In this document: positions 3,905 to 31,084 of the stretch, piece after piece
Layout of the letters: each line of letters opens with the position of its first letter
How positions within the stretch are numbered: position 1 is the first letter of the stretch
Notes under the pieces: model-generated
The model's database searches: none
Seen by the model: only the letters and a program-made list of their open reading frames with translations
What the model was told of the DNA's origin: nothing
Made by a program: the position numbers and the translations under genes
Source of the DNA: Escherichia coli
GTDB lineage: Bacteria > Pseudomonadota > Gammaproteobacteria > Enterobacterales > Enterobacteriaceae
Length of the DNA: 64,000 bases
Reading direction: 5' to 3' (one strand)
Assembly: GCF_030013595.1 (NCBI RefSeq)
Contig: NZ_CP122769.1

Positions 3905-4963
3905 ATGTCTAATGCCGCTATGAAGTTAAATGAAACATCTTCTGATGCTTATGAAAAATTAGAAGCTCTTCTTTCCCCGGATGTTATAAAGTTAAAACAT
4001 TATGTGGATAAAGGTGAGTATCTTTTAGTTCTAGCAAAGGACCTTTTTGGTATTCCAGAAATGGATCCAAAGATGGCTGTGCCTGTTTTCAAAACTAAAA
4101 CCTCGTATCGAGCTCCGCTGAACAAAGACTACATACCAAATCCCCGAATACTTGAACAAGTGGTTAAACTGCTTATCAGTCCGGATATAGATTTAAGTGT
4201 GTGTCTTAAAGGTGAGTCCGGTTCTGGCAAGACTGAAATGGTAATGTACATTAGCCACATGATGAATTGGCCGCTGACAATTAAGCAGATCAACAGCAAT
4301 ATTCGAGTTGATGAGCTTGAAGGTGAGCGCAGTCTTAATGGTGGTAATACAGGTTTTGTACACAGCGATTTGGTAACGGGATTTCGTAATGGTCACCTCA
4401 TTCTTCTGGATGAAGTGGACAAAATCGATCCTGATACGGCAGCAAAACTTCACATGCCCATTGAACGTAAGCCCTGGTCACTCAGTGCTAATGGTGGTGA
4501 GGTTATAACTGCTAATGGCTACACGCGATTTATTGGTACTGCAAACACAAACATGAGTGGAGGCGCTCGCCGGTTCGTTTCTTCTCAACGTCAAGATGCA
4601 GCTTTTATAAAGCGGTTCTTGATAGTTGAAATGGAGAAGCCCGACAAAGTTGCTTTAACCAATGTGCTTACTAAACGATATAGCTCTTTGCCTTTTCAGG
4701 TCATTGAGAAGTTCGTAAGAGTAGCGATTGCAGTAAATGACTCTGGTACAGAAGACAGTGTGATGGATATTCGTCAATTAGTAGCTTGGGTTGGCACGTC
4801 GATGACGTTAAAAACCTTTAGTCTTCTTGACACTTTCAAAATAGCTTTTGCTTCTGCTTTACCTTTACATGTGGTCGATCTTGTTCTTCAAGCTATAGAT
4901 CTTTCTCTTGGCGAAGACAAGGATAAATCGCTGGAGTATTTCACAGCAAAAAAGTCGAGTTAG
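3905..4963 (+). CDS. AAA+ ATPase, MoxR/CobS-like
   Basis: Walker A GESGSGKT, Walker B HLILLDEVDK, downstream sensor-like FIGTANT; size and motif spacing typical of MoxR/CbbQ/CobS-type AAA+ proteins. Confidence 0.8.
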   Translation: MSNAAMKLNETSSDAYEKLEALLSPDVIKLKHYVDKGEYLLVLAKDLFGIPEMDPKMAVPVFKTKTSYRAPLNKDYIPNPRILEQVVKLLISPDIDLSVCLKGESGSGKTEMVMYISHMMNWPLTIKQINSNIRVDELEGERSLNGGNTGFVHSDLVTGFRNGHLILLDEVDKIDPDTAAKLHMPIERKPWSLSANGGEVITANGYTRFIGTANTNMSGGARRFVSSQRQDAAFIKRFLIVEMEKPDKVALTNVLTKRYSSLPFQVIEKFVRVAIAVNDSGTEDSVMDIRQLVAWVGTSMTLKTFSLLDTFKIAFASALPLHVVDLVLQAIDLSLGEDKDKSLEYFTAKKSS

Positions 4964-5280: not shown

Positions 5281-5320
5281 CGGGAAATCTTTCCCGTTGG
5301 GGAGGGTTTCCCCTTTTTTT
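5281..5320 (+). terminator. double stem-loop cassette (CGGGAAA-TCT-TTCCCG and GGGGAGGGTTTCCCC) followed by T7
   Basis: Two adjacent palindromes and a T-run read from sequence, immediately upstream of RBS GGAGAAACCC and ATG at 5319. Confidence 0.5.
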
Positions 5321-6458
5321 GGAGAAACCCATGACTTTAAATACTTCAATGCTTAACAAAGTATCTGCAAAACAAATCTCTGAGAATTTTGCAAAATCAT
5401 ATCCAGATTTACTGGAAGGTGCAGTTATAACAAAAATTGAAATAAGTGGCTGTCAAGGATCGCGTCGAACCGATAAAATCGATTTGTCTTATGATGGAGA
5501 TGATATTACGGATCAAAAAAGCGTATCTAAAAGCGAAGTACGCTGGATTGACATAAAAGCCCTTAGCTTCAAAAGTACGATTACCAGCAGAATATCAACT
5601 CTTTGCTCACGCTTGTGCATCCGCTATAGCAATATGTGGATTTTACCAGTATCCAGTATGGAAGAGTTTCTGGAAGGGGCCCAAGAGATTGAACGAGAGT
5701 TTCAGGCAGGTATTCAAAACGTTGTAGACAATTATGAGATGCATATTGAGGCTGAAAAAAATAGAAGCCCAAGAATGTCTTCTTTGATTGATCAGTTGAA
5801 ATTAACTAAAGATGATTTCATAAAATCCTTTAGATTTAATATTGCTCACTTTATTCCTTTTACGCCTATTAGCGTTGAAGGTGATGAAACCCAGGACTAC
5901 TATCAGGAACAATTGATAACAGATCTGGCAGAAGAAGCAATGAAGGTTTATGAAAAAATTAGCAAAAATAACAATTTGCGCTCAAGTACTATTGACCGAC
6001 TGAAGCAAATGCAAAATAAGATCATTAGCTTCATGTTTATACATAAAGAGGCGGCAGTACTTGCAGAAGCTATAAAACACATAATGAATAATTTACCTAA
6101 AGGTGCCATTTCTGAACCTCGCGACGTTGCGGTGTTACAGCAGTGGTTTTATTTCATGAGTGATGCTTCAATGTTAAAGCGTATTATTTCAGGAGAGCAA
6201 AAGGTTACTGACTGGTTGGAATCTATTACCAGATCATTTAATCAAAGCTCACAAACAGAACCGAACGCGCTACAGAACACAGGTATTGAAGCTATTTTAG
6301 ATTCAACAAATGTGTTCCAGGTTGAACCTGTCGTAGAGAACGATATAAATAACAGCACGTTTTCAAACACTGATCCTGTAGCTGAACCTGAGAAATCAGT
6401 TTCGCAACAGGAAGACAATGTTGAAAATTGTTTTGATATCGAGCTCAAAGGCTGGTAA
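5319..6458 (+). CDS. hypothetical protein
   Basis: 379-aa ORF between the AAA+ ATPase and vWA genes; no recognisable motifs. Position suggests it belongs to the same module. Confidence 0.5.
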   Translation: MEKPMTLNTSMLNKVSAKQISENFAKSYPDLLEGAVITKIEISGCQGSRRTDKIDLSYDGDDITDQKSVSKSEVRWIDIKALSFKSTITSRISTLCSRLCIRYSNMWILPVSSMEEFLEGAQEIEREFQAGIQNVVDNYEMHIEAEKNRSPRMSSLIDQLKLTKDDFIKSFRFNIAHFIPFTPISVEGDETQDYYQEQLITDLAEEAMKVYEKISKNNNLRSSTIDRLKQMQNKIISFMFIHKEAAVLAEAIKHIMNNLPKGAISEPRDVAVLQQWFYFMSDASMLKRIISGEQKVTDWLESITRSFNQSSQTEPNALQNTGIEAILDSTNVFQVEPVVENDINNSTFSNTDPVAEPEKSVSQQEDNVENCFDIELKGW

Positions 6459-6535: not shown

Positions 6536-8554
6536 ATGAAATTAGATCTTAAATCATCACCGCGCCATATTAAGCGTTTACAGAATATAGCAAAAGTCAT
6601 TAGCGGCTTAGGCGATGTAAGAGTTGTAATAGACGACAATACCAAAGGACCGTATTTTGATCCTGTAAATAAAGTTTGTGTTTTACCAAACGGCGATTAT
6701 AGCGATGATGACTTTGTCAGTCTGATTGAAGGTTTTACCTGTCATGAAGCTGGTCATGGTCGCTATACCGACAGCGAGGTTTACAGTGACGCCTTTAATA
6801 GTGTTCTCAAGTCATCTGAAGGGTTTACACGCTTCGATGACGGAATGAATGCAGAGTTTGAGAGCCTCGCTGAGAAACGTAAAGCTTATAGCAGGGCAAA
6901 ACGTCTTACCGGGCTTATAAATCTGTTCGATGATGTACAGATGGAAGAGAAGGTTGGTAACGATTATCCGGATGCAAAGCGGCGGCTTGCAGCCACTTAC
7001 GCACTGATGGTTAAAGCCGGAAGGATGACTCCTGATATATCTTCTCGTCCGGAAAATCCTGTCCTATTTATTGAGTGGTATCTGCTTAACTCATTGCGAG
7101 TAAAAGTCCTTCAGCAGGCAGGTCACAAAGAAACACTCGATCCGTTTTTTGACTATGCCCAAAAGATACTTTCTCCAGTAATTTCTGATGTTGAGGAAAT
7201 TTTTCATGATGCTCTTGGTTGTGAAAATACTCAGGGCTGTGAATCCCTTGCTCGTAAGACCCTGGCTCTTTTAGAGAGACTGCGGGATGAGGCAAGGGAA
7301 CAACAGCAGCAGACAGAGCAGGAGGAGCAGGAGGCATATGATGAATCCGAGACCGAGACCGATACCGATACCGATACCGAATCAGAAGATAAATCGCTTG
7401 AGTCGACTGATAGTCGTGAGGATGATTCTGAGGACGATAGTGAAGGTCAGGCAGATACTTCCGATAACTCTGATCTTGCTCAAGAGGGATGTTCTGAGCC
7501 TTCAGAACTTGCTGAAGATAACGAGGGAAATAATGAACCCACCGGTGGCAATCCCACAGGTGATAACATTATTGAAGACGATACTGATGCGATTAACCCT
7601 TCCGAGAGTGAATCAGATGAAGCCAGTTCGACTAACGTTGAAGATGAAAGTAACTTTTCATCGGCTCAATGGGAGATACTGGCAGATTTGTTGGATGCCT
7701 TTCTTGGCAGTGATGAGGATAGCGAAGATTATCACGATGCTTTGGCTAAAGAGATTGAAGGTATTGCATCAAAAGTATCCGATGACGTGAAAGCCGAATT
7801 CGGTGCTTCTGAATGGGATATCCCTGATCTCCTTATCGATTTGAATGTTTACAATGAGGCTTTGTCTCTGAGTCATTCAATCGGTAGCGACTTGTCTGTT
7901 TTACAGCAGGTTAAAATGCGTGGCCGAAACAAAACTCATGAGCGTGGAATTACCTTCGATGGAAATCGATTAATTCTGTCACCAATGGGAGTTCGTGATG
8001 TCTTCAGAGCTCAAAGCGAATCTAAAAATAGAGGGCATGTTGGCCTCGTATTAGTTCGTGATATTTCAGCGTCAATGGCTAATGATGAAAGATATATTCA
8101 TGCCATTAAGTCAGATCTTGCTTTATCGATGGCCGCTGAAAGTTTGTCAAAAATGCATGTCTCCAATATAGTCTTTCCCTTCAAGGAAAGTGAATTTGAG
8201 ATTATCAAAACGTTTGATCAAAGCGTTGAGGAATCTCTATCGAAATTCACTCTTGGATGTAAGGGTTATTATACCCCTACGGGATCGGCTTTAATGGCAG
8301 CTGTTGATCTGTTACTTGACAGCCAATTCGATAGGAAAATAATTTTTCTTATAACTGATGGTTATCCGAATAAATCGGAATTTACTATCGGCGAAGTTAT
8401 GGAAAAGGCTAAATGTAATGGAATAGAAATCGTTGGTGTTGGTATTAAGACTGATGAAATAATTGGTTTTGAAACGGACACTTTCGTAACAGTTGATGAT
8501 ACTTCTTTATTGTCTATTGAAGTCAGTAAGCTAGTTCATCAAATACTTTCTTAA
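6536..8554 (+). CDS. von Willebrand factor A (vWA) domain protein, CobT-like, with N-terminal HExxH motif and central acidic low-complexity region
   Basis: C-terminal MIDAS-like motifs LVLVRDISASM and FLITDGYPN; N-terminal CHEAGHGRY (HExxH); central D/E/S/T-rich stretch including ETETDTDTDTESED encoded by hexanucleotide repeats. Confidence 0.75.
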   Translation: MKLDLKSSPRHIKRLQNIAKVISGLGDVRVVIDDNTKGPYFDPVNKVCVLPNGDYSDDDFVSLIEGFTCHEAGHGRYTDSEVYSDAFNSVLKSSEGFTRFDDGMNAEFESLAEKRKAYSRAKRLTGLINLFDDVQMEEKVGNDYPDAKRRLAATYALMVKAGRMTPDISSRPENPVLFIEWYLLNSLRVKVLQQAGHKETLDPFFDYAQKILSPVISDVEEIFHDALGCENTQGCESLARKTLALLERLRDEAREQQQQTEQEEQEAYDESETETDTDTDTESEDKSLESTDSREDDSEDDSEGQADTSDNSDLAQEGCSEPSELAEDNEGNNEPTGGNPTGDNIIEDDTDAINPSESESDEASSTNVEDESNFSSAQWEILADLLDAFLGSDEDSEDYHDALAKEIEGIASKVSDDVKAEFGASEWDIPDLLIDLNVYNEALSLSHSIGSDLSVLQQVKMRGRNKTHERGITFDGNRLILSPMGVRDVFRAQSESKNRGHVGLVLVRDISASMANDERYIHAIKSDLALSMAAESLSKMHVSNIVFPFKESEFEIIKTFDQSVEESLSKFTLGCKGYYTPTGSALMAAVDLLLDSQFDRKIIFLITDGYPNKSEFTIGEVMEKAKCNGIEIVGVGIKTDEIIGFETDTFVTVDDTSLLSIEVSKLVHQILS

Positions 8555-8876: not shown

Positions 8877-8960
8877 AAATTCTGCGTTGTGGGTTTCTCC
8901 CTGTCTTCTGCACCGCAGAAGGCATTGAGAAACTCACAATGCCAGATAAGAGAGATCATC

Positions 8961-10193
8961 ATGACTTATGCATCCCCGGCTCTTCGTCGTAATCCACAGG
9001 AAGTATCTGAACACTTTATTAAACTCGTTCATGCTCGAATTGCTGAAGTGTCTGGCTGGAAGTATATATTCGAAAGAATACCTGCTTTCAAAGACGCTTG
9101 TGCAAAAGCCCCGAGCCAGGTTCCTTGCCCGTTTACTGGCGCAGGGAAATCGAAGTTTCGTTTCCGACAAAAAGACCTTTATACCGGATGTGCGATCCAT
9201 AATGACTTTCCGGTAAATGAGTTTTGCGACGGAATTGATGTTCTGGCGAAATATTATGAATTAAGTAAAACGCAGACTTGCAAAAAGATTCTCTCAGATT
9301 TTTTCGGGATGGATCTGCATGCTCCGTTAACTGACGCCGACATTGAAAATGAACGACGCTATAAATCAGCAGTTCGTGCCACAGAAACTCTTGACCGAGA
9401 GGAAGTGGCAAAGCGAATGCGAAAACTTGATGTGATGTATCACTATACCGGTGAAATCAAGCCTAATACTCCTGTTGCTTTGTACCTCCGTAATCGTGGG
9501 ATCTCCCGCTTACTGAGTCACTTACCAAAGGATTTAGGCTTTAATAACCGGATCTACTATTGGGATAAAGATAAGCAGAAATCGATTATCTATCCGGGAA
9601 TGATTGCGATCTATCGTGACACCCGAGGTCGGCCTCTGACTATTCATAGAACATACGTAGACAAAAATGGTGATAAGGCACCTGTAGAAAATCCAAAGCT
9701 GATGATGAAGCCTCCTGCCGATATGACAGGTGGCTCAATTCAGTTGTTTGACCCTCACTATGATTCAGGTAGTTCGACCTGGACACTGGGAGTGGCTGAA
9801 GGGATCGAGAACGCGCTTTCTGTTGTAGAAGCGACTTCAACACCATGCTGGGCAGCCAGCTCCGCATGGTGCCTTGAAAACGTTACTGTTCCTGATTTTT
9901 TACTGCCTCCGCCGGATGTAAAATCTATAAACTTTTATATCTGGGCGGATAAGGATATTGCTAACTCACAAGGCACTCGTGCCGGTATTGAAGCTGCTCA
10001 GCGACTTCAAAGCCGCATGGTTGAGTTTTTGGCTAAACGATATCCCGCATCAAAGCTGACAATTGAAGTCTTCGAACCAGCACAAGATATTCCTGATGGG
10101 AAAAAGGGTATCGACTGGAACGATGTTCTCCAGTTAACAGGGCAGGATGGATTCCCGATTCACTGGGCTCCTGAATGTCTTAATCAGCTGTAA
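8961..10193 (+). CDS. Toprim-domain protein, putative primase-like
   Basis: Toprim-like motifs LGVAEGIENALSV (acidic E) and IWADKDIANSQG (DxD), Cys/His-rich N-terminus. Start chosen at ATG 8961 (MTYASP...); ORF extends to 8889 upstream. Confidence 0.55.
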   Translation: MTYASPALRRNPQEVSEHFIKLVHARIAEVSGWKYIFERIPAFKDACAKAPSQVPCPFTGAGKSKFRFRQKDLYTGCAIHNDFPVNEFCDGIDVLAKYYELSKTQTCKKILSDFFGMDLHAPLTDADIENERRYKSAVRATETLDREEVAKRMRKLDVMYHYTGEIKPNTPVALYLRNRGISRLLSHLPKDLGFNNRIYYWDKDKQKSIIYPGMIAIYRDTRGRPLTIHRTYVDKNGDKAPVENPKLMMKPPADMTGGSIQLFDPHYDSGSSTWTLGVAEGIENALSVVEATSTPCWAASSAWCLENVTVPDFLLPPPDVKSINFYIWADKDIANSQGTRAGIEAAQRLQSRMVEFLAKRYPASKLTIEVFEPAQDIPDGKKGIDWNDVLQLTGQDGFPIHWAPECLNQL

Positions 10194-13016: not shown

Positions 13017-13688
13017 ATGAATGCTATACAAAAGTTAGTTGAATCTATTCTTGTTAAAATGGGTTTTGTTGGCGCTGTAGTGGAAAATATATATTTGGAT
13101 TCAAAACCATTTCGGCATATTCGATTTGTGGCTGATATTCCAGTAATATCTTTTCTACCTCATTTGGTGAAATATCTTAAGGGTGCAGACCATCTTTACA
13201 GTGGTAACGATGATTTGCATCCTCTTTTCATTTATTTTTCCGAAGCGGCTACATTAAAAGCAGGTCCTGTAAATCTCGCGAACTTTCGTTTTGAAGTTTC
13301 TATAGCTTCAACTCATTTACGACTGGTCTCAGAGCAGCCTGATTTGCTTTTCAAAGGATTTAACCGGGATAATCTAGAATACGTTTATTACCGCTCAGAT
13401 TTGGCCTCTAGGGATCTTATACTAGGCCTTGTTGAACACGGTTCTCCTTTCATAAAACATCTACATGGACTTATACAAAAGCGAATTTTAAACGAGTTCT
13501 CTCTGATTTTTTCTGTTCTTGAAAAGATTTTAGAAAGCGCGAAGCCACAAATTCTTGCTTGCTTCCATAGTGTTGATTATGAAATGAACGTAAAAATAAT
13601 AGCCGAAGCTATACCTGAAACTGTATCTAATCAGATAGTCACATCTGATTATATAGTTAATGTTAGCGCCAATGATATAAGACTGTAA
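13017..13688 (+). pseudogene. 5' part of a gene interrupted by the IS21-family element
   Basis: Stop codon TAA (13686-13688) lies inside the first bases of the IS end TGTAATTCGCC; the reading frame resumes in the same frame after the element (15787 onward). Confidence 0.5.
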
Positions 13689-13761
13689 TTCGCCATTTGG
13701 GTTGTCCGCTCCACCCAACATGTTGTTTCCTTGAGGTTCTCACACCAGAAAGGACATCGAC

Positions 13762-15731
<1,970 letters not shown>

Positions 15732-15786
15732 TCAAATAGCGGACATTAAAAATGGCGAAAACCGGCCATAAATCTTGGCGTTGACA

Positions 15787-25988: not shown

Positions 25989-26154
25989 ATAACTTGGGCT
26001 TTGCGCATTAAACCCTTGCCGCAGGCGGTGTACCGCATATCCGGCACAGACAGTCAGTTTTTTCTGGCAGCTTAAATTTGACACTGCTTAATATAGTGAT
26101 TCATTAAACAGGTTCAGTATGCTGCCAGAACGTTTTAGTCGTAATGGGCGTCCG

Positions 26155-27708
26155 TTAGTTTTCAACTAACTGAACGACGACCAGCCTGCCGCCTTCCTCC
26201 TTTGACAGAACAAACTGAGCGTTATTCGTCAGTTCAATTTTTTCCCCAATGGCAATCTGTCGTTTATCCGGTAATGACATAAGCCCATTTATGCCTTCAT
26301 TTACTAACCACCACTGATCGTTATGGAAAACAAAATACCCAACTCGTTTCCTTTGTGCATCGGTTGTGCGCTCATTTGGCGCAATGAGGCGATTCACATG
26401 CCACGCATAGATTGACTGCCCGCTCCACACCATCAACCGGTGGTCGTCAGGACGATAACTGCCTTCCTTTCGGGATGAATATAAATTTAGAACCGGTAAT
26501 TTACCCTTGTATGGCGTACCGCAGTAGGGACAAACCGGCTTTGTCTTACCTGAGAAAACGTACCATTTCTGTTCACACGCCTTGTTCTGGCAGGGCTGTA
26601 TCAGATCGACTGTTTTAACCAGGGCACTTTCCCACTCATCGGCGGTCGGGCGTTTATTGGCATCGTGTAAGCCATCAATAAAGGCGCGTTCAAACAAAGG
26701 CGTCAAATAAGGGCCCATGATGGTGTAAGGAATTTTCTCCGGGTCAGCCCAGGGCAGTGAAAAGGAGGATATCTGACTGACTTTGACTGCATTGCTTTTG
26801 TCTGTCGGATGTTCAATGAAGAGTGCCTTCTCACCCATAGATAAGGTCTCATCACGTACTTCATCCGACATGTCATGTATTTTTCCGCCACGTAGCGGAT
26901 GACGGAAGAACAGATACATGTAGATAAGCACCGACAGCGCATGACGGTCAGTAGAAATGCTTGGCAATACGCGGTTCGGATCCTCTTTGGAAAGATGGCT
27001 GGTTTTCACCACTTCCGGAGCGATAAAATCCGGGGTGCCCACGACGTCGGGAGGATACTTTCCAGGGACAACCAGGCCGTCTACGTCAATGATGCAGGCA
27101 TGTCCCATTTCTGGATCGATAAGCACGTTTTTATAGCTTAGATCGCTGTGACAGAGACCTGCCGCATGCATCCTTCTGACGGCTCTTGTTAGCAGCAGAC
27201 AGACCTTGAGATAGGTAAGCGTATTGCCTCGTTCACGTGGGTCGAGAAATTTATTCTGGTTGCTGGCGCTGGCAAACCATTTGCCTTCCTTTTCACGGCC
27301 TTTTATGCCAAGAAAATCATCGTTTTTAGAGCCGTATTTAAAGAAAAAGTAGCTTTTGTAGGTTGGAACCACGATGCCGATTTTATCCCCATGCTCAACA
27401 ACGTGGGTCGGCCAGCAAAACAGGTCCTTCCAGTATTCACCTCCGGACTGGCCAAAAATGTTTTGCCTGTAGCGTCCGGTGATCATATCAATCCGATCCC
27501 GGGCCTGCTCGTTCTGCGGTTTATGATAAAAAGCGACGACGTATGATTTATCAGGCGAGAAGTAAACATCCTTCATCGAGCCCGAACCAATTACCTCGTC
27601 AACATACTGGACTGTTTCGCCGTCCTTTGTTTTGCACGTAACAATATTTGCCATATTGATCACCGAAGAAGCGTATCCCTTACCACAACACCGCAATAGT
27701 GCGGTCAT
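26155..27708 (-). CDS. Hanks-type serine/threonine protein kinase with C-terminal zinc-ribbon
   Basis: Gly-rich loop VIGSGSMKDVYF, catalytic loop HSDLSYKNVLI, IDVDG (DFG-equivalent), GTPDFIAPEV (APE motif); CQNKACEQ...CPYCG zinc ribbon. Alternative start at 27654 (MANIVTCK). Confidence 0.8.
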   Translation of the reverse strand: MTALLRCCGKGYASSVINMANIVTCKTKDGETVQYVDEVIGSGSMKDVYFSPDKSYVVAFYHKPQNEQARDRIDMITGRYRQNIFGQSGGEYWKDLFCWPTHVVEHGDKIGIVVPTYKSYFFFKYGSKNDDFLGIKGREKEGKWFASASNQNKFLDPRERGNTLTYLKVCLLLTRAVRRMHAAGLCHSDLSYKNVLIDPEMGHACIIDVDGLVVPGKYPPDVVGTPDFIAPEVVKTSHLSKEDPNRVLPSISTDRHALSVLIYMYLFFRHPLRGGKIHDMSDEVRDETLSMGEKALFIEHPTDKSNAVKVSQISSFSLPWADPEKIPYTIMGPYLTPLFERAFIDGLHDANKRPTADEWESALVKTVDLIQPCQNKACEQKWYVFSGKTKPVCPYCGTPYKGKLPVLNLYSSRKEGSYRPDDHRLMVWSGQSIYAWHVNRLIAPNERTTDAQRKRVGYFVFHNDQWWLVNEGINGLMSLPDKRQIAIGEKIELTNNAQFVLSKEEGGRLVVVQLVEN

Positions 27709-29320
27709 CGTGGTTCCCTGTGGAGAAAAAGTTAAGCCAGTCGCCTAACCTCTCAGGCGCAATACTGGCGTCTGTAAGGACAGGGATGAGCTCATCAAGG
27801 AGACGGGTCCATTTTTCGTCACTGCGAAGCCCGTTATCTGTCTCAAACAGAGGGTCTGATACGCCATCTGTCATGAGGATCAAGTGAGATACATCATTCC
27901 ATTTACCCACGCTGATGCGGCCGCTAAACGAGGGGTCTGCGATAATGCTCTGGTCAAGAAAGCGGGTTTGTCCTGCGTATTCTCCGCTATCGGGATTTCC
28001 CAGTATCCTGACTTTACCGGAAGGGCTGTATGCACCTATCGCACCATCACCAAGCCAGAATGCAGCCGCAAACAGCTCGTTATCAGTTCGTAGCGCTACA
28101 GTTGCCAGTAGGGTTGTTGAATAGGATTTCACAGGTTGTTCTGCACAAATGGCTTCGTTCTGGATACTGTTGACCGCGAGCGTAGCTGCCTGTTTAAAAT
28201 GATGAAGCATGGCGTTTATGGTTGCCTGCTGATCGCTCCCTTCCCACGCCGTGATGTGCTGCTTTAGATGGACGCCTTTCAAACCACTGAGCTGATTGAA
28301 AAGGTAATCGCCAGCCGTTTGGACTGCAATCCGGGAGCCTTCCCGGGAATTTACCGCACTACCGGCCCCGTCTGCGACCAGCATGACAGACCATCCTGTT
28401 TCCTGGCAGTGGTTGATATAGAAGTCGTCATCTCTGAAGCTCCCGGCATGCTCATGAGATCGTCCCCGGCGACTGGCGGCAGCAATACGTATGTCACCCC
28501 TGACCAGGCCAGCAGCGTCCAGATGGGACTTAGGGTAGGAAGCGTCTGCTGGTGGCTCTACCACCTTCCACAGGCTTCTCGGATCGGGATTGACTATAAA
28601 AAGCTGTTTTGTTTCGCATTCGTCGTGCGAAGCGCATGACCAGAGTACTGAAAGCTCTATATCGCCGCTTTCGGTGGGTGTACCTGTCAGCAACTTATGC
28701 TCTTTGTCAAAGGTCAGGCCAATGTTCCTGGGAAAGACAACGTCCCTGACAGTAGCCTGCTGGCCCTCATCCAGAACTATAGCAACCGGCGAAGAGAAAC
28801 GTTCGCCTGCGCGGGCGTTGGGAATAACTATTTTAGCTCTCGGGGGAACGGCAGGTGGCACAGCTAATCCGGCCCGCTGCTGGCCTGTCGGTATCTGCCC
28901 GGGTTTTAATACCAGGGAAGACAGGTTTTCGTCTTCCCTCTGTGCTGGTTTATCAAATTCGTAATAAGGCATCAGCTTCCAGAACGGAGGATGAGGTTCA
29001 TTTTCTGGCAGGGGTTGCAGTAATGGTGTATCGGTAGCGTCAATGCCCGGGTTATCAGCATCACTTACGACCGTTTGTTGCTGATCGGAAAGGCTGGATG
29101 CTGACGAGGGGGCGATCTCTGCGTCGTTATAACCTTCGCTAACCCGCGCAGATAAACCCTGTGCAAGGCTCTCAATCCGCTCTTTAAGCCGCATAATCTC
29201 TTCAGTAAGGGAAGGGTCGTGCGATAGAAGAAAAAGCCGCTCACCTTCTACAGGGTGGCCCAGCTCAGACAGCACTAAGCGGATAATCTTCTCTTCAAGT
29301 AAAACATTTTGCGACATCAA
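27680..29320 (-). CDS. PP2C-family serine/threonine phosphatase with N-terminal extension
   Basis: PP2C-like motifs MLVADGAGSAVNS and LILMTDGVSDPL; stop overlaps kinase start region and start overlaps upstream vWA gene stop. Confidence 0.75.
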   Translation of the reverse strand: MMSQNVLLEEKIIRLVLSELGHPVEGERLFLLSHDPSLTEEIMRLKERIESLAQGLSARVSEGYNDAEIAPSSASSLSDQQQTVVSDADNPGIDATDTPLLQPLPENEPHPPFWKLMPYYEFDKPAQREDENLSSLVLKPGQIPTGQQRAGLAVPPAVPPRAKIVIPNARAGERFSSPVAIVLDEGQQATVRDVVFPRNIGLTFDKEHKLLTGTPTESGDIELSVLWSCASHDECETKQLFIVNPDPRSLWKVVEPPADASYPKSHLDAAGLVRGDIRIAAASRRGRSHEHAGSFRDDDFYINHCQETGWSVMLVADGAGSAVNSREGSRIAVQTAGDYLFNQLSGLKGVHLKQHITAWEGSDQQATINAMLHHFKQAATLAVNSIQNEAICAEQPVKSYSTTLLATVALRTDNELFAAAFWLGDGAIGAYSPSGKVRILGNPDSGEYAGQTRFLDQSIIADPSFSGRISVGKWNDVSHLILMTDGVSDPLFETDNGLRSDEKWTRLLDELIPVLTDASIAPERLGDWLNFFSTGNHDDRTIAVLW

Positions 29321-30357
29321 CCTCTCCCTCTGTTTACGTCGAAGTTAGTGTTTCCGCCATCATTGCTGAATGACAGACCTGTTTCACACCACGGGCAGAT
29401 CACGTCATCCGGGCCGTCAATGCACAGCAATTTTCCGCATGAGCACAGGGCAAACGCACTGGCATTACCGCAGTGAGGGCAACCCGGTACGCCATGCAGT
29501 TCGCTGGTGTTTACCTGCAAACCGGTAGCGGTGGCATCTGACCATGCAAAATAGTCCTCATCGATGGGATAGCATCCGGCAATATTAAAGCTGTTCAGGT
29601 TCAGGCTGAAATCGAGCCCGGAAATCCTTGCTGGTGGCCGTTCATACTTCATCAGATACGGACGACGGGTCTTGCTGCAACGGCCGGTAAGCGTAACGCA
29701 GTTTTCGTCGTACGCTTTTACTGGCTCGTCCTTGGCCAGCCGGACTATGTATTCAGTCTGGCTGAGCTCAGGTTGTTTGTCGTCTCCGACGCTGCGGCTG
29801 TGCGCCGTAACCGAGGCTGTGATCCATTTGATGAAGCGGGTAAAGTCCCCTTCCTGAGACTCGGTGAACAGCATGACATTCTCTGTCAGTTGCCGCAGGG
29901 TATTCAGGTCCGCTGACGGCCCCAGGCCAACGGCAATGAGATTCACTTTACTCGCGTAGTGATCCTTCCAGCGCTTCACTTCTGCGGTTGTGTCGTCAGT
30001 CGGACGTCCGTCGGTAAGGAGATACACGACGGGTTTCCAGTCGCCTTTAGCCTCATGAGTGGTTTTTCTGACCTGGGTATCAATTTGTACGGTCAGCTCA
30101 CGCAATGCGGCCCCAAGGCTCGTACCGCCGCCAACGGGAAGGCGGGGAGGGTAGAACGAGGCAATTTCGTGAAGAGGTACAATCGTACGGGCTACACCGG
30201 CAAATGCGATTACCGAAACCCAGGCTGTTTCAAGTGCGTGTGGATCCTTTCTTAAATCTCCGATGATCATTTGCAGACCATCAGTCATTTTTTTCAGGTT
30301 TTCACCAATCATGGACTCTGAACAGTCCAGGACAAAAAACACGGGAAGGCGTCTCAT
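29317..30357 (-). CDS. TerY-like vWA protein with C-terminal zinc ribbon (third TerY paralogue)
   Basis: Start set at MRRLPVFFVLDCSESM (RBS GAGGAAA); MIDAS motifs DCSES and YLLTDGRPTDD; C-terminal CPHCG...CSCG...CPWC. Confidence 0.75.
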   Translation of the reverse strand: MRRLPVFFVLDCSESMIGENLKKMTDGLQMIIGDLRKDPHALETAWVSVIAFAGVARTIVPLHEIASFYPPRLPVGGGTSLGAALRELTVQIDTQVRKTTHEAKGDWKPVVYLLTDGRPTDDTTAEVKRWKDHYASKVNLIAVGLGPSADLNTLRQLTENVMLFTESQEGDFTRFIKWITASVTAHSRSVGDDKQPELSQTEYIVRLAKDEPVKAYDENCVTLTGRCSKTRRPYLMKYERPPARISGLDFSLNLNSFNIAGCYPIDEDYFAWSDATATGLQVNTSELHGVPGCPHCGNASAFALCSCGKLLCIDGPDDVICPWCETGLSFSNDGGNTNFDVNRGRG

Positions 30358-30442
30358 AATTTTCCTCGTACGGCTGGTACGGCCAGCAGAAAACGTTGCT
30401 GTACAGAAAGGTGCTGCCCGGAAAGCAGCACCTTTCTGTCTG

Positions 30443-31084
30443 TCAGAGCACCAGCTGGATTTCTGGTGGAGGAGGGGGAAGGGTATCAGTTCCGTTATTG
30501 ATCCCCGCGCTTGTGCTGCCGGAAGACACGCTGGCCGATACCCATTTAAAGAAACCTGCAAACGCGGTTGAATCTAGCGTCTCCAGAGACACAACCTTAT
30601 CGGTGAGCTGTTTTAAGTGCTCATGGCCTGCTTTAGGACCAACGGCGCAGGCAATGATGGATCCGAATCCCCGGCCGCGAATCGCTTTTACCGCTTCACC
30701 GTACGCCAGGGCATCAGAAGGGGTTCCATCAGTCATCAGGAATACCAGAGGACGCCAGTCTCCTTTTGTATCACCATCTGAGCGACGTACATCCCGTTCA
30801 ACACACTGCATCAGACATTCAAGGGCAGCACCGGTGAACGTCCCGCCTGCGCTTGGCACAACGATGTCAGAAAACTGGAAGTCTTCCAGCGGCGTGAGAG
30901 GAATGAACTCACGCGCCTCATTGTCATAGGTGATAATGGAGATATGAACGCTTTCGAGGGCGTAGGGATCCTGGCGAAGAGCGCTAAGCATCGCCTGAAT
31001 TCCAACGTTAACGGAATGGATGGACTCACCGCGCATCGAGCCGGATGTGTCGATAACAAGGTAAACAGGCAGGCGGCGCATCAC
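30443..31084 (-). CDS. TerY-like vWA protein (second TerY paralogue)
   Basis: MMRRLPVYLVIDTSGSM and FLMTDGTPSD MIDAS motifs; 213 aa; start overlaps terX stop. Confidence 0.8.
   Translation of the reverse strand: MMRRLPVYLVIDTSGSMRGESIHSVNVGIQAMLSALRQDPYALESVHISIITYDNEAREFIPLTPLEDFQFSDIVVPSAGGTFTGAALECLMQCVERDVRRSDGDTKGDWRPLVFLMTDGTPSDALAYGEAVKAIRGRGFGSIIACAVGPKAGHEHLKQLTDKVVSLETLDSTAFAGFFKWVSASVSSGSTSAGINNGTDTLPPPPPEIQLVL

Follow-up and report, generated by a model that had tools for sequence, protein, structure and literature searches.

In chelatase-type vWA subunits, such as CobT and the BchD/ChlD subunits of Mg-chelatase, an acidic low-complexity linker joins an N-terminal domain to a C-terminal vWA/integrin-I domain. 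Together with the NorQ-NorD complexes, these subunits are the closest described counterparts of the vWA protein studied here. For the hexanucleotide repeat found within its gene, the nearest parallels are the phase-variable contingency loci and the repeats of the Salmonella virulence plasmid pSLT, whose 9-bp in-frame traD VNTR and STTR10pl locus have been used to study plasmid evolution (PMC6459517). The repeat resembles both pSLT loci in its short tandem units, its location on a large enterobacterial plasmid, a copy number that varies between close plasmids and its suitability for following plasmid sublineages, and, like the traD VNTR, it lies in frame. Unlike them, it belongs to a vWA gene of IncHI2 plasmids, is far shorter (2–6 units) and combines, in one compound array, two variants of the unit that are one base apart. 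With the contingency loci it has in common a simple coding repeat that changes its copy number, presumably by slippage; unlike in those loci, the length of its unit is divisible by three, so that frameshifts do not occur and the full open reading frame (ORF) is kept, and the tract is short. Literature on DUF3150, on IncHI2 and von Willebrand, and on IncHI2 and tandem repeats yielded neither this gene nor this repeat, and the tract is apparently undescribed for the vWA gene.

The window, namely the whole 64-kb stretch of DNA that was analysed, corresponds to an IncHI2 plasmid backbone. Its vWA gene (Table 1) is 100% identical to that of the 'VWA domain-containing protein' WP_000762697.1 of IncHI2/IncHI2A conjugative plasmids (e.g., pM160133_p1) and has matches in 1,120 PLSDB plasmid records and in 273 of 5,426 complete E. 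coli genomes. Downstream of trhI, the genes follow the order AAA_5 ATPase, small ORF, DUF3150, vWA, small ORF and Toprim/DUF7146 primase-like gene, and the succession AAA_5 ATPase, DUF3150 and vWA is conserved in a relative with 91% identity. The RefSeq coding sequence of the DUF3150 gene begins 12 nt downstream of the ORF start. A Ser/Thr kinase/PP2C pair is also encoded by the plasmid, ~15 kb downstream.

Table 1 Features of the vWA locus and their positions in the window.
Feature	Position	Strand	Evidence
AAA_5 (MoxR/CobS-like) ATPase gene	3905..4963	+	PF07728 (5e-28); phrog_249; TIGR01650 (weak)
DUF3150 gene, between the ATPase and vWA genes	5319..6458	+	PF11348 (2e-23)
vWA-domain protein gene (672 aa)	6536..8554	+	ORF; PF00092; homologue conservation; structure model
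Acidic Asp/Glu/Ser-rich linker (~residues 256–372)	7301..7651	+	Composition; model; alignment
9-nt repeat GAGCAGGAG x2.1 (EQEEQE)	7316..7334	+	Tandem Repeats Finder
Polymorphic hexanucleotide array (ETETDTDTDT)	7349..7378	+	Sequence; Tandem Repeats Finder; allele comparison
Toprim/DUF7146 primase-like gene	8889..10193		

The locus thus contains an AAA_5/MoxR-type ATPase gene together with a MIDAS-bearing vWA gene, as in MoxR-class gene pairs, and the ATPase is the presumed partner of the vWA protein. The two resemble a MoxR/CobS-type AAA+/vWA pair but are not a cobaltochelatase, since the profile scores fall far below the family cut-offs (33.8 bits against a cut-off of 779 for TIGR02442, and 34.4 against 558 for the CobS profile TIGR01650) and the context is a plasmid backbone, where trhI, the Toprim primase-like gene and hypothetical IncHI2 backbone genes occupy the neighbourhood instead of cobN and other cobalamin-biosynthesis genes. 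A match to phrog_17276, annotated as 'CobT', was weak. As in the case of CobT and BchD/ChlD, the protein has the layout of two domains joined by an acidic linker, and a gene for a small CobS/BchI-like AAA+ ATPase lies nearby; in contrast with them, cobalamin or chlorophyll genes are missing from the locus, the backbone is conjugative, a DUF3150 gene is intercalated and the N-domain carries a conserved HExxH-like motif. The likeness to NorQ-NorD consists in the match of the modelled C-domain to the NorD vWA domain and in the presence of the AAA_5 ATPase gene 1.6 kb upstream. A search with the PADLOC anti-phage defence profiles retrieved none for vWA or DUF3150 proteins, and AAA matches remained at noise level.

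An alignment of 18 homologues (44–100% identity) divided the vWA protein into three parts: an N-domain, an acidic segment and a C-terminal region. The N-domain (~residues 1–255) is conserved, with an invariant HEAGHGRYT motif that includes H70, E71 and H74, as is the C-terminal region (~residues 372–672), which holds the vWA domain. The assignment of the gene to the vWA family, proposed in an earlier note on this DNA, agrees with its Pfam match to PF00092 (31.7 bits, above the gathering threshold of 23.8), and the MIDAS-type residues D509-x-S511-x-S513, T580/T582 and D608 are invariant in 18 of the 18 homologues. The AlphaFold2 model (mean pLDDT 63.5) showed a confident N-domain, a long helix at residues 232–274 and a vWA domain of only moderate confidence. 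In the Foldseek comparison, the C-domain resembled integrin I domains as well as the vWA domain of NorD in NorQ-NorD complexes (E ~1e-4); among the Foldseek matches listed, there was no PDB match for the N-domain. When PDB sequences were searched with the profile of the family, the vWA matches obtained were all weak, CobT (9uka, E = 0.06) among them.

Between these two conserved parts, the linker is strongly acidic (net charge of −53 over residues 256–420). Residues 272–372 had pLDDT values below 50 and are predicted to be disordered, which places the repeat tract at the exact border between order and predicted disorder. In the 18 homologues, the linker segment could not be aligned and ranged from ~45 to ~170 residues in length; its acidity was kept across the family and its sequence was not. 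Close relatives elsewhere in the family differed in length only by linker indels and polyQ changes. For instance, two homologues (P0043 and P0046) with ~98% match at aligned positions differed by a 40-residue DAEGE-type block and a six-residue polyQ change, and a 43-residue linker insertion separated two others (P0030 and P0031). The linker is thus an indel hotspot elsewhere in the family too. The ET/DT repeat is confined to IncHI2-type proteins (at least 91% identity), and farther homologues have unrelated acidic sequence at this place. The low-complexity region also contains two ORFs overlapping the vWA gene, at 7287–7790 (+) and 7086–7337 (−), which are most likely artefacts.

The tract itself is an in-frame array, (GAGACC)2(GATACC)3, that encodes E272 to T281 in the context AYDES-ETETDTDTDT-ESEDK. 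The earlier note had read this array, followed by GAA, inside the acidic region of the gene; that reading matches positions 7349–7381 exactly, the peptide that it gave, TETDTDTDTE, is a correct substring of the translation, and the tract does lie in the acidic region, whose segment of residues 272–372 it opens. The range of 7320–7390 indicated there also takes in a separate 9-nt repeat, GAGCAGGAG. Tandem Repeats Finder delimited the hexanucleotide tract at 7347–7380, with a period of 6, 5.7 copies, 96% matches and a score of 54, the highest among all tandem repeats of the window. Such an arrangement of short head-to-tail units, as found in VNTRs, exceeds chance expectation: when the synonymous codons of the gene were permuted, the observed 28-nt run of period 6 with one mismatch was matched in 1 of 2,000 permutations, and ([DE]T)x5 never appeared in 5,000 shuffles of the residues of the acidic region. 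Moreover, all five Thr codons of the tract are ACC (P ~0.001 compared with the usage of the gene outside the tract). That the units are identical as DNA is a sign of recent unit duplication and not of selection for a peptide pattern.

The number of units varies among IncHI2 plasmids. Using a 151-nt query around the tract, we retrieved 1,117 plasmid records with match lengths of 151, 157, 145, 139 and ~133 nt. We denote as a+b the allele (GAGACC)a(GATACC)b, with compositions read from the fetched sequences. Two units (1+1) were present in a plasmid of Salmonella Cubana CFSAN002050, in p13E573-HI2 and in the 91%-identity relative, which comes from SRR1749613; three (1+2) in R478, pC309-VIM4, p15-0756.1 and p2018-18.25CC; four in pMCR1-PA, pAPEC-O1-R and the plasmid of S. 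Typhimurium 81741 (1+3) and, in a different combination, in GCA_011120605.1 (3+1); five (2+3) in the window, pM160133_p1, pSE08-00436-1, pYps.F1, pRIVM_C019752_2 and pP136-1; and six (3+3) in three Japanese Serratia marcescens plasmids, including pQC11_1, and one E. coli plasmid. Both sub-blocks, GAGACC and GATACC, therefore vary between 1 and 3 copies. An approximate census of PLSDB, based on identity bands for the 2-, 5- and 6-unit queries and on ~100 listed match lengths and not on every sequence, gave ~11 plasmids with two units, ~438 with three, ~588 with four, ~74 with five and 4 with six. A 7-unit query found none with more than six units in PLSDB; we used 6- and 7-unit queries instead of an artificial 9-unit one, whose ranking was uninformative because BLAST broke most of its alignments in two. 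With one exception discussed below, length differences always corresponded to whole 6-nt units between identical flanks, as in VNTRs, and the ORF was intact in every allele, with annotated coding sequences of 2001, 2007, 2013, 2019 or 2025 nt. Both the copy-number differences between alleles and the length-variable acidic linker foreseen in the earlier note were thus borne out: far from being identical in all homologues, unit numbers differ among the ~1,117 IncHI2 plasmids, and the changes are in frame, by whole units, at the start of the predicted disordered acidic segment.

These length differences occur on a very uniform background. The window (5 units), pMCR1-PA (4), pQC11_1 (6), p15-0756.1 (3) and p2018-18.25CC (3) have zero SNPs over ~1,800 nt of the gene, so that four length classes coexist on a single SNP-free gene background; R478-type plasmids have ~17 differing sites over the same ~1,800 nt. 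We extended the comparison, in 12 plasmids of lineage A and R478, to a backbone segment of 29.8 kb that starts at trhF and ends upstream of the integrase gene, with distances normalised to SNPs per 30 kb. Within lineage A (n = 12), the SNP table contained 43 substitution sites in 29.8 kb against at least 4 changes of the tract. On a neighbour-joining (NJ) tree including R478, parsimony required 6 tract events, or 7 unit steps. Because this tree was distorted for three taxa of partial coverage (the window, L002 and L013), we relied on the SNP table and quote 4–6 events. From the 43 sites, 0.04 substitutions are expected in any 30-nt stretch, and comparison of this value with the at least 4 tract changes puts the frequency of change in the tract some 100-fold above that of an average 30-nt stretch, an estimate that comes from a small flank sample and from counts with recombination left in. 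With the counts taken in this way, the tract changes more often than its surroundings, as VNTRs do. The 9-nt repeat provided an internal control: its copy number was constant in 23 of 23 fetched sequences. One error-laden assembly (L005) has one base of this repeat absent.

A slippage-made and tolerated length polymorphism in a disordered linker is, on these sequence comparisons, very probably the best explanation. From the allele pattern, we infer replication slippage as the likely mechanism and near-neutrality of the copy-number changes. The process would have started from a two-unit seed, GAGACC-GATACC (ET-DT), likely ancestral, which some IncHI2 plasmids and the 91%-identity relative still carry. 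During replication, nascent and template strands may misalign across identical 6-nt units, by slipped-strand mispairing or an equivalent short-homology misalignment, and this misalignment would add or remove whole units in either sub-block. As the unit equals two codons, all such changes would be in frame. Because the tract opens a disordered, strongly acidic linker that joins the N-domain to the vWA domain, the protein would tolerate one to four ET/DT dipeptides more or fewer, and the resulting alleles would persist, carried along with the plasmid sublineages. The outcome is a linker of variable length and not an expression switch. Two observations speak against this explanation: compared with a classical slippage hotspot, the tract is short, with 1–3 copies per sub-block, and the 9-nt repeat beside it is invariant in copy number.

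Alternatively, the length classes might be old stable alleles, each arisen once and then inherited or moved by homologous recombination, in a tract that is not especially mutable. Repeat length does correlate with sublineage: R478-type plasmids have mostly 3 units, the pMCR1-PA type has 4, and the window groups closely with four other 5-unit plasmids (distances of no more than 3.6 SNPs per 30 kb) in a clade that is uniformly 5-unit and has five or six derived SNPs private to it. There is also some conflict in the SNP patterns, compatible with recombination. The 5-unit plasmid pP136-1, at a distance of 10–13 from the window clade, shares with it one SNP and, within the integrase gene, the 3-copy allele of another repeat, and the 5-unit allele may thus have a single origin; even if pP136-1 is joined to the window clade, lineage A still requires at least 4 events. 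However, six alleles occur among plasmids in which the rest of the gene is identical or ~99% identical, and the positions of individual plasmids also speak against this alternative. The 3-unit plasmid p2018-18.25CC is nested by 2–3 SNPs among 4-unit plasmids, at ~2 from pMCR1-PA (4 units) and at ~8 from p15-0756.1, another 3-unit plasmid, and the nearest relative of the 6-unit pQC11_1 is pAPEC-O1-R, with 4 units. Plasmid recombination, instead of repeated mutation, could account for some of the allele sharing across SNP backgrounds, but recombination only moves existing lengths and cannot create new ones. We therefore regard a set of old stable alleles as unlikely.

A second alternative is that copy number is under selection, the count of ET/DT dipeptides tuning the linker of an AAA+/vWA machine, according to the host, in its spacing, its charge or its number of Thr sites. 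The conservation of linker acidity in the family despite sequence divergence is in line with such a role, as is the uneven host distribution, with 3-unit alleles mainly in Enterobacter and 4- and 5-unit alleles mainly in E. coli and Salmonella. Nevertheless, the effect of the host cannot be separated here from that of plasmid lineage, and the changes concern 2–8 residues of a ~115-residue linker in a family where the variation amounts to tens of residues. In addition, the vWA gene is split by IS elements in some circulating plasmids and, hence, is not strictly required. Host-dependent selection on copy number appears highly improbable in view of these observations. We give scarcely more credit to the related idea that the tract is a tunable element for which sublineages or hosts favour different copy numbers; in that case, tract length or Thr number could adjust the presentation of the vWA domain to the AAA+ ATPase, or the Thr residues could be targets of the Ser/Thr kinase/PP2C pair of the plasmid.

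The suspicion that sequencing or assembly errors in low-complexity DNA have produced the length variation is hardly tenable. In its favour, pFORC82_1 might be invoked, the sole case not a multiple of 6 nt; around the tract, this record shows scattered 1-nt indels and an interrupted ORF, as uncorrected long-read assemblies typically do. Against it, the tract measures 12–36 nt, below any read length, the differences are exact multiples of 6 nt between identical flanks, and every length class is represented by tens to hundreds of complete assemblies that different laboratories produced independently. Phase variation was ruled out because the changes involve whole in-frame units and the ORFs remain intact at 2001–2025 nt.

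Slippage in a tolerant linker, the explanation that we favour, makes the tract an in-frame coding length polymorphism that is ordinary in kind, and its weight for general biology is low, as in-frame repeat polymorphism in disordered linkers is already familiar. Its interest is modest and practical, for the plasmids that carry it. As vehicles of mcr-1, mcr-9 and carbapenemase genes, IncHI2 plasmids are of major importance, and the strong conservation of their backbones leaves few SNPs (~43 in 30 kb in the set of relatives that we compared). The tract already separates sublineages and could sharpen resolution in plasmid epidemiology; together with the second 6-nt repeat, that of the integrase gene, it is a possible fast two-locus marker for the mcr-1/mcr-9 IncHI2 sublineages. 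It also draws attention to an uncharacterised and widely conserved module of IncHI2-type plasmids, in which three genes encode an AAA_5 ATPase, a DUF3150 protein and the vWA protein.

The in-frame hexanucleotide repeat of the vWA gene, (GAGACC)2(GATACC)3, is not the only one of its kind in the window. A tyrosine recombinase/integrase gene carries another, (TCTTCA)n on the plus strand, which reads (TGAAGA)n on the coding strand and is translated as DEDEDEED. This repeat is likewise polymorphic among the compared IncHI2 plasmids, with either three copies and a CDS of 1182 nt (the window, pSE08-00436-1, pYps.F1 and pP136-1) or two copies and a CDS of 1176 nt (pMCR1-PA, pAPEC-O1-R, the STm 81741 plasmid, p2018-18.25CC and pQC11_1). 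In these plasmids, the 5-unit vWA allele was found together with the 3-copy integrase allele. The vWA-gene repeat is also read, in a different frame, as RPRPIPIPIP by a second ORF overlapping the acidic region; this ORF is most likely a by-product of low complexity.

Features located in and around the vWA gene and along the IncHI2 backbone of the window.
Feature	Position	Strand	Remarks
HExxH-type motif C-HEAGH-GRYT, N-domain of the vWA protein	6743-6757	+	residues H70-E-A-G-H74; homologue alignment
167-aa ORF overlapping the acidic region of the vWA gene	7287-7790	+	frame +2
~2.1-kb insertion	13662-15786		absent from pYps.F1 and pSE08-00436-1; alignment to these plasmids
In-frame hexanucleotide repeat, tyrosine recombinase/integrase gene	23267-23291	gene on -	(TCTTCA)n on + strand
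Kinase/PP2C/TerY-C/vWA cluster, IncHI2 backbone	~26000-30700 (by mapping of the loci)		~15-20 kb downstream of the vWA gene; plasmid loci L014, L015, L017, L021, L022

Upstream of the acidic region, the vWA protein contains an HExxH-type motif that is unchanged in all 18 aligned homologues, at identities down to 44%. It sits in the helical N-domain, which was modelled with confidence and had neither a Pfam hit nor a PDB fold match among those listed. This site might be metal-binding or metallopeptidase-like. In nr, the entry P0050 (Salmonella enterica, 584 aa) bears a class I/II aminotransferase annotation and shares 100% identity with the vWA protein across 35% of the query; this entry is probably chimeric or misassembled.

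The IncHI2 backbone also carries a separate vWA-containing module, in which, according to the annotation, a second vWA protein is accompanied by an InaA-family kinase or 'protein kinase', a PP2C Ser/Thr phosphatase and a TerY-C metal-binding protein.

The alignments on either side of the ~2.1-kb insertion overlap by 5 bp, which suggests a target-site duplication, and the insertion truncates a backbone ORF starting at 13017. It codes for two proteins of 390 and 266 aa, the second with a Walker A motif (GPPGVGKT); from a reading of their translations, they look like IstA and IstB of the IS21 family.

In some circulating IncHI2 plasmids (NZ_CP119741.1, NZ_CP119735.1 and AP022520.1), the vWA gene itself (6536-8554 in the window) is broken by insertion sequences. 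In two bovine E. coli plasmids the interrupting element is IS903B; in pSTN0717-73-1, the repeat is followed immediately downstream by transposase genes. The vWA gene therefore appears to be dispensable for plasmid persistence in the hosts of these plasmids.
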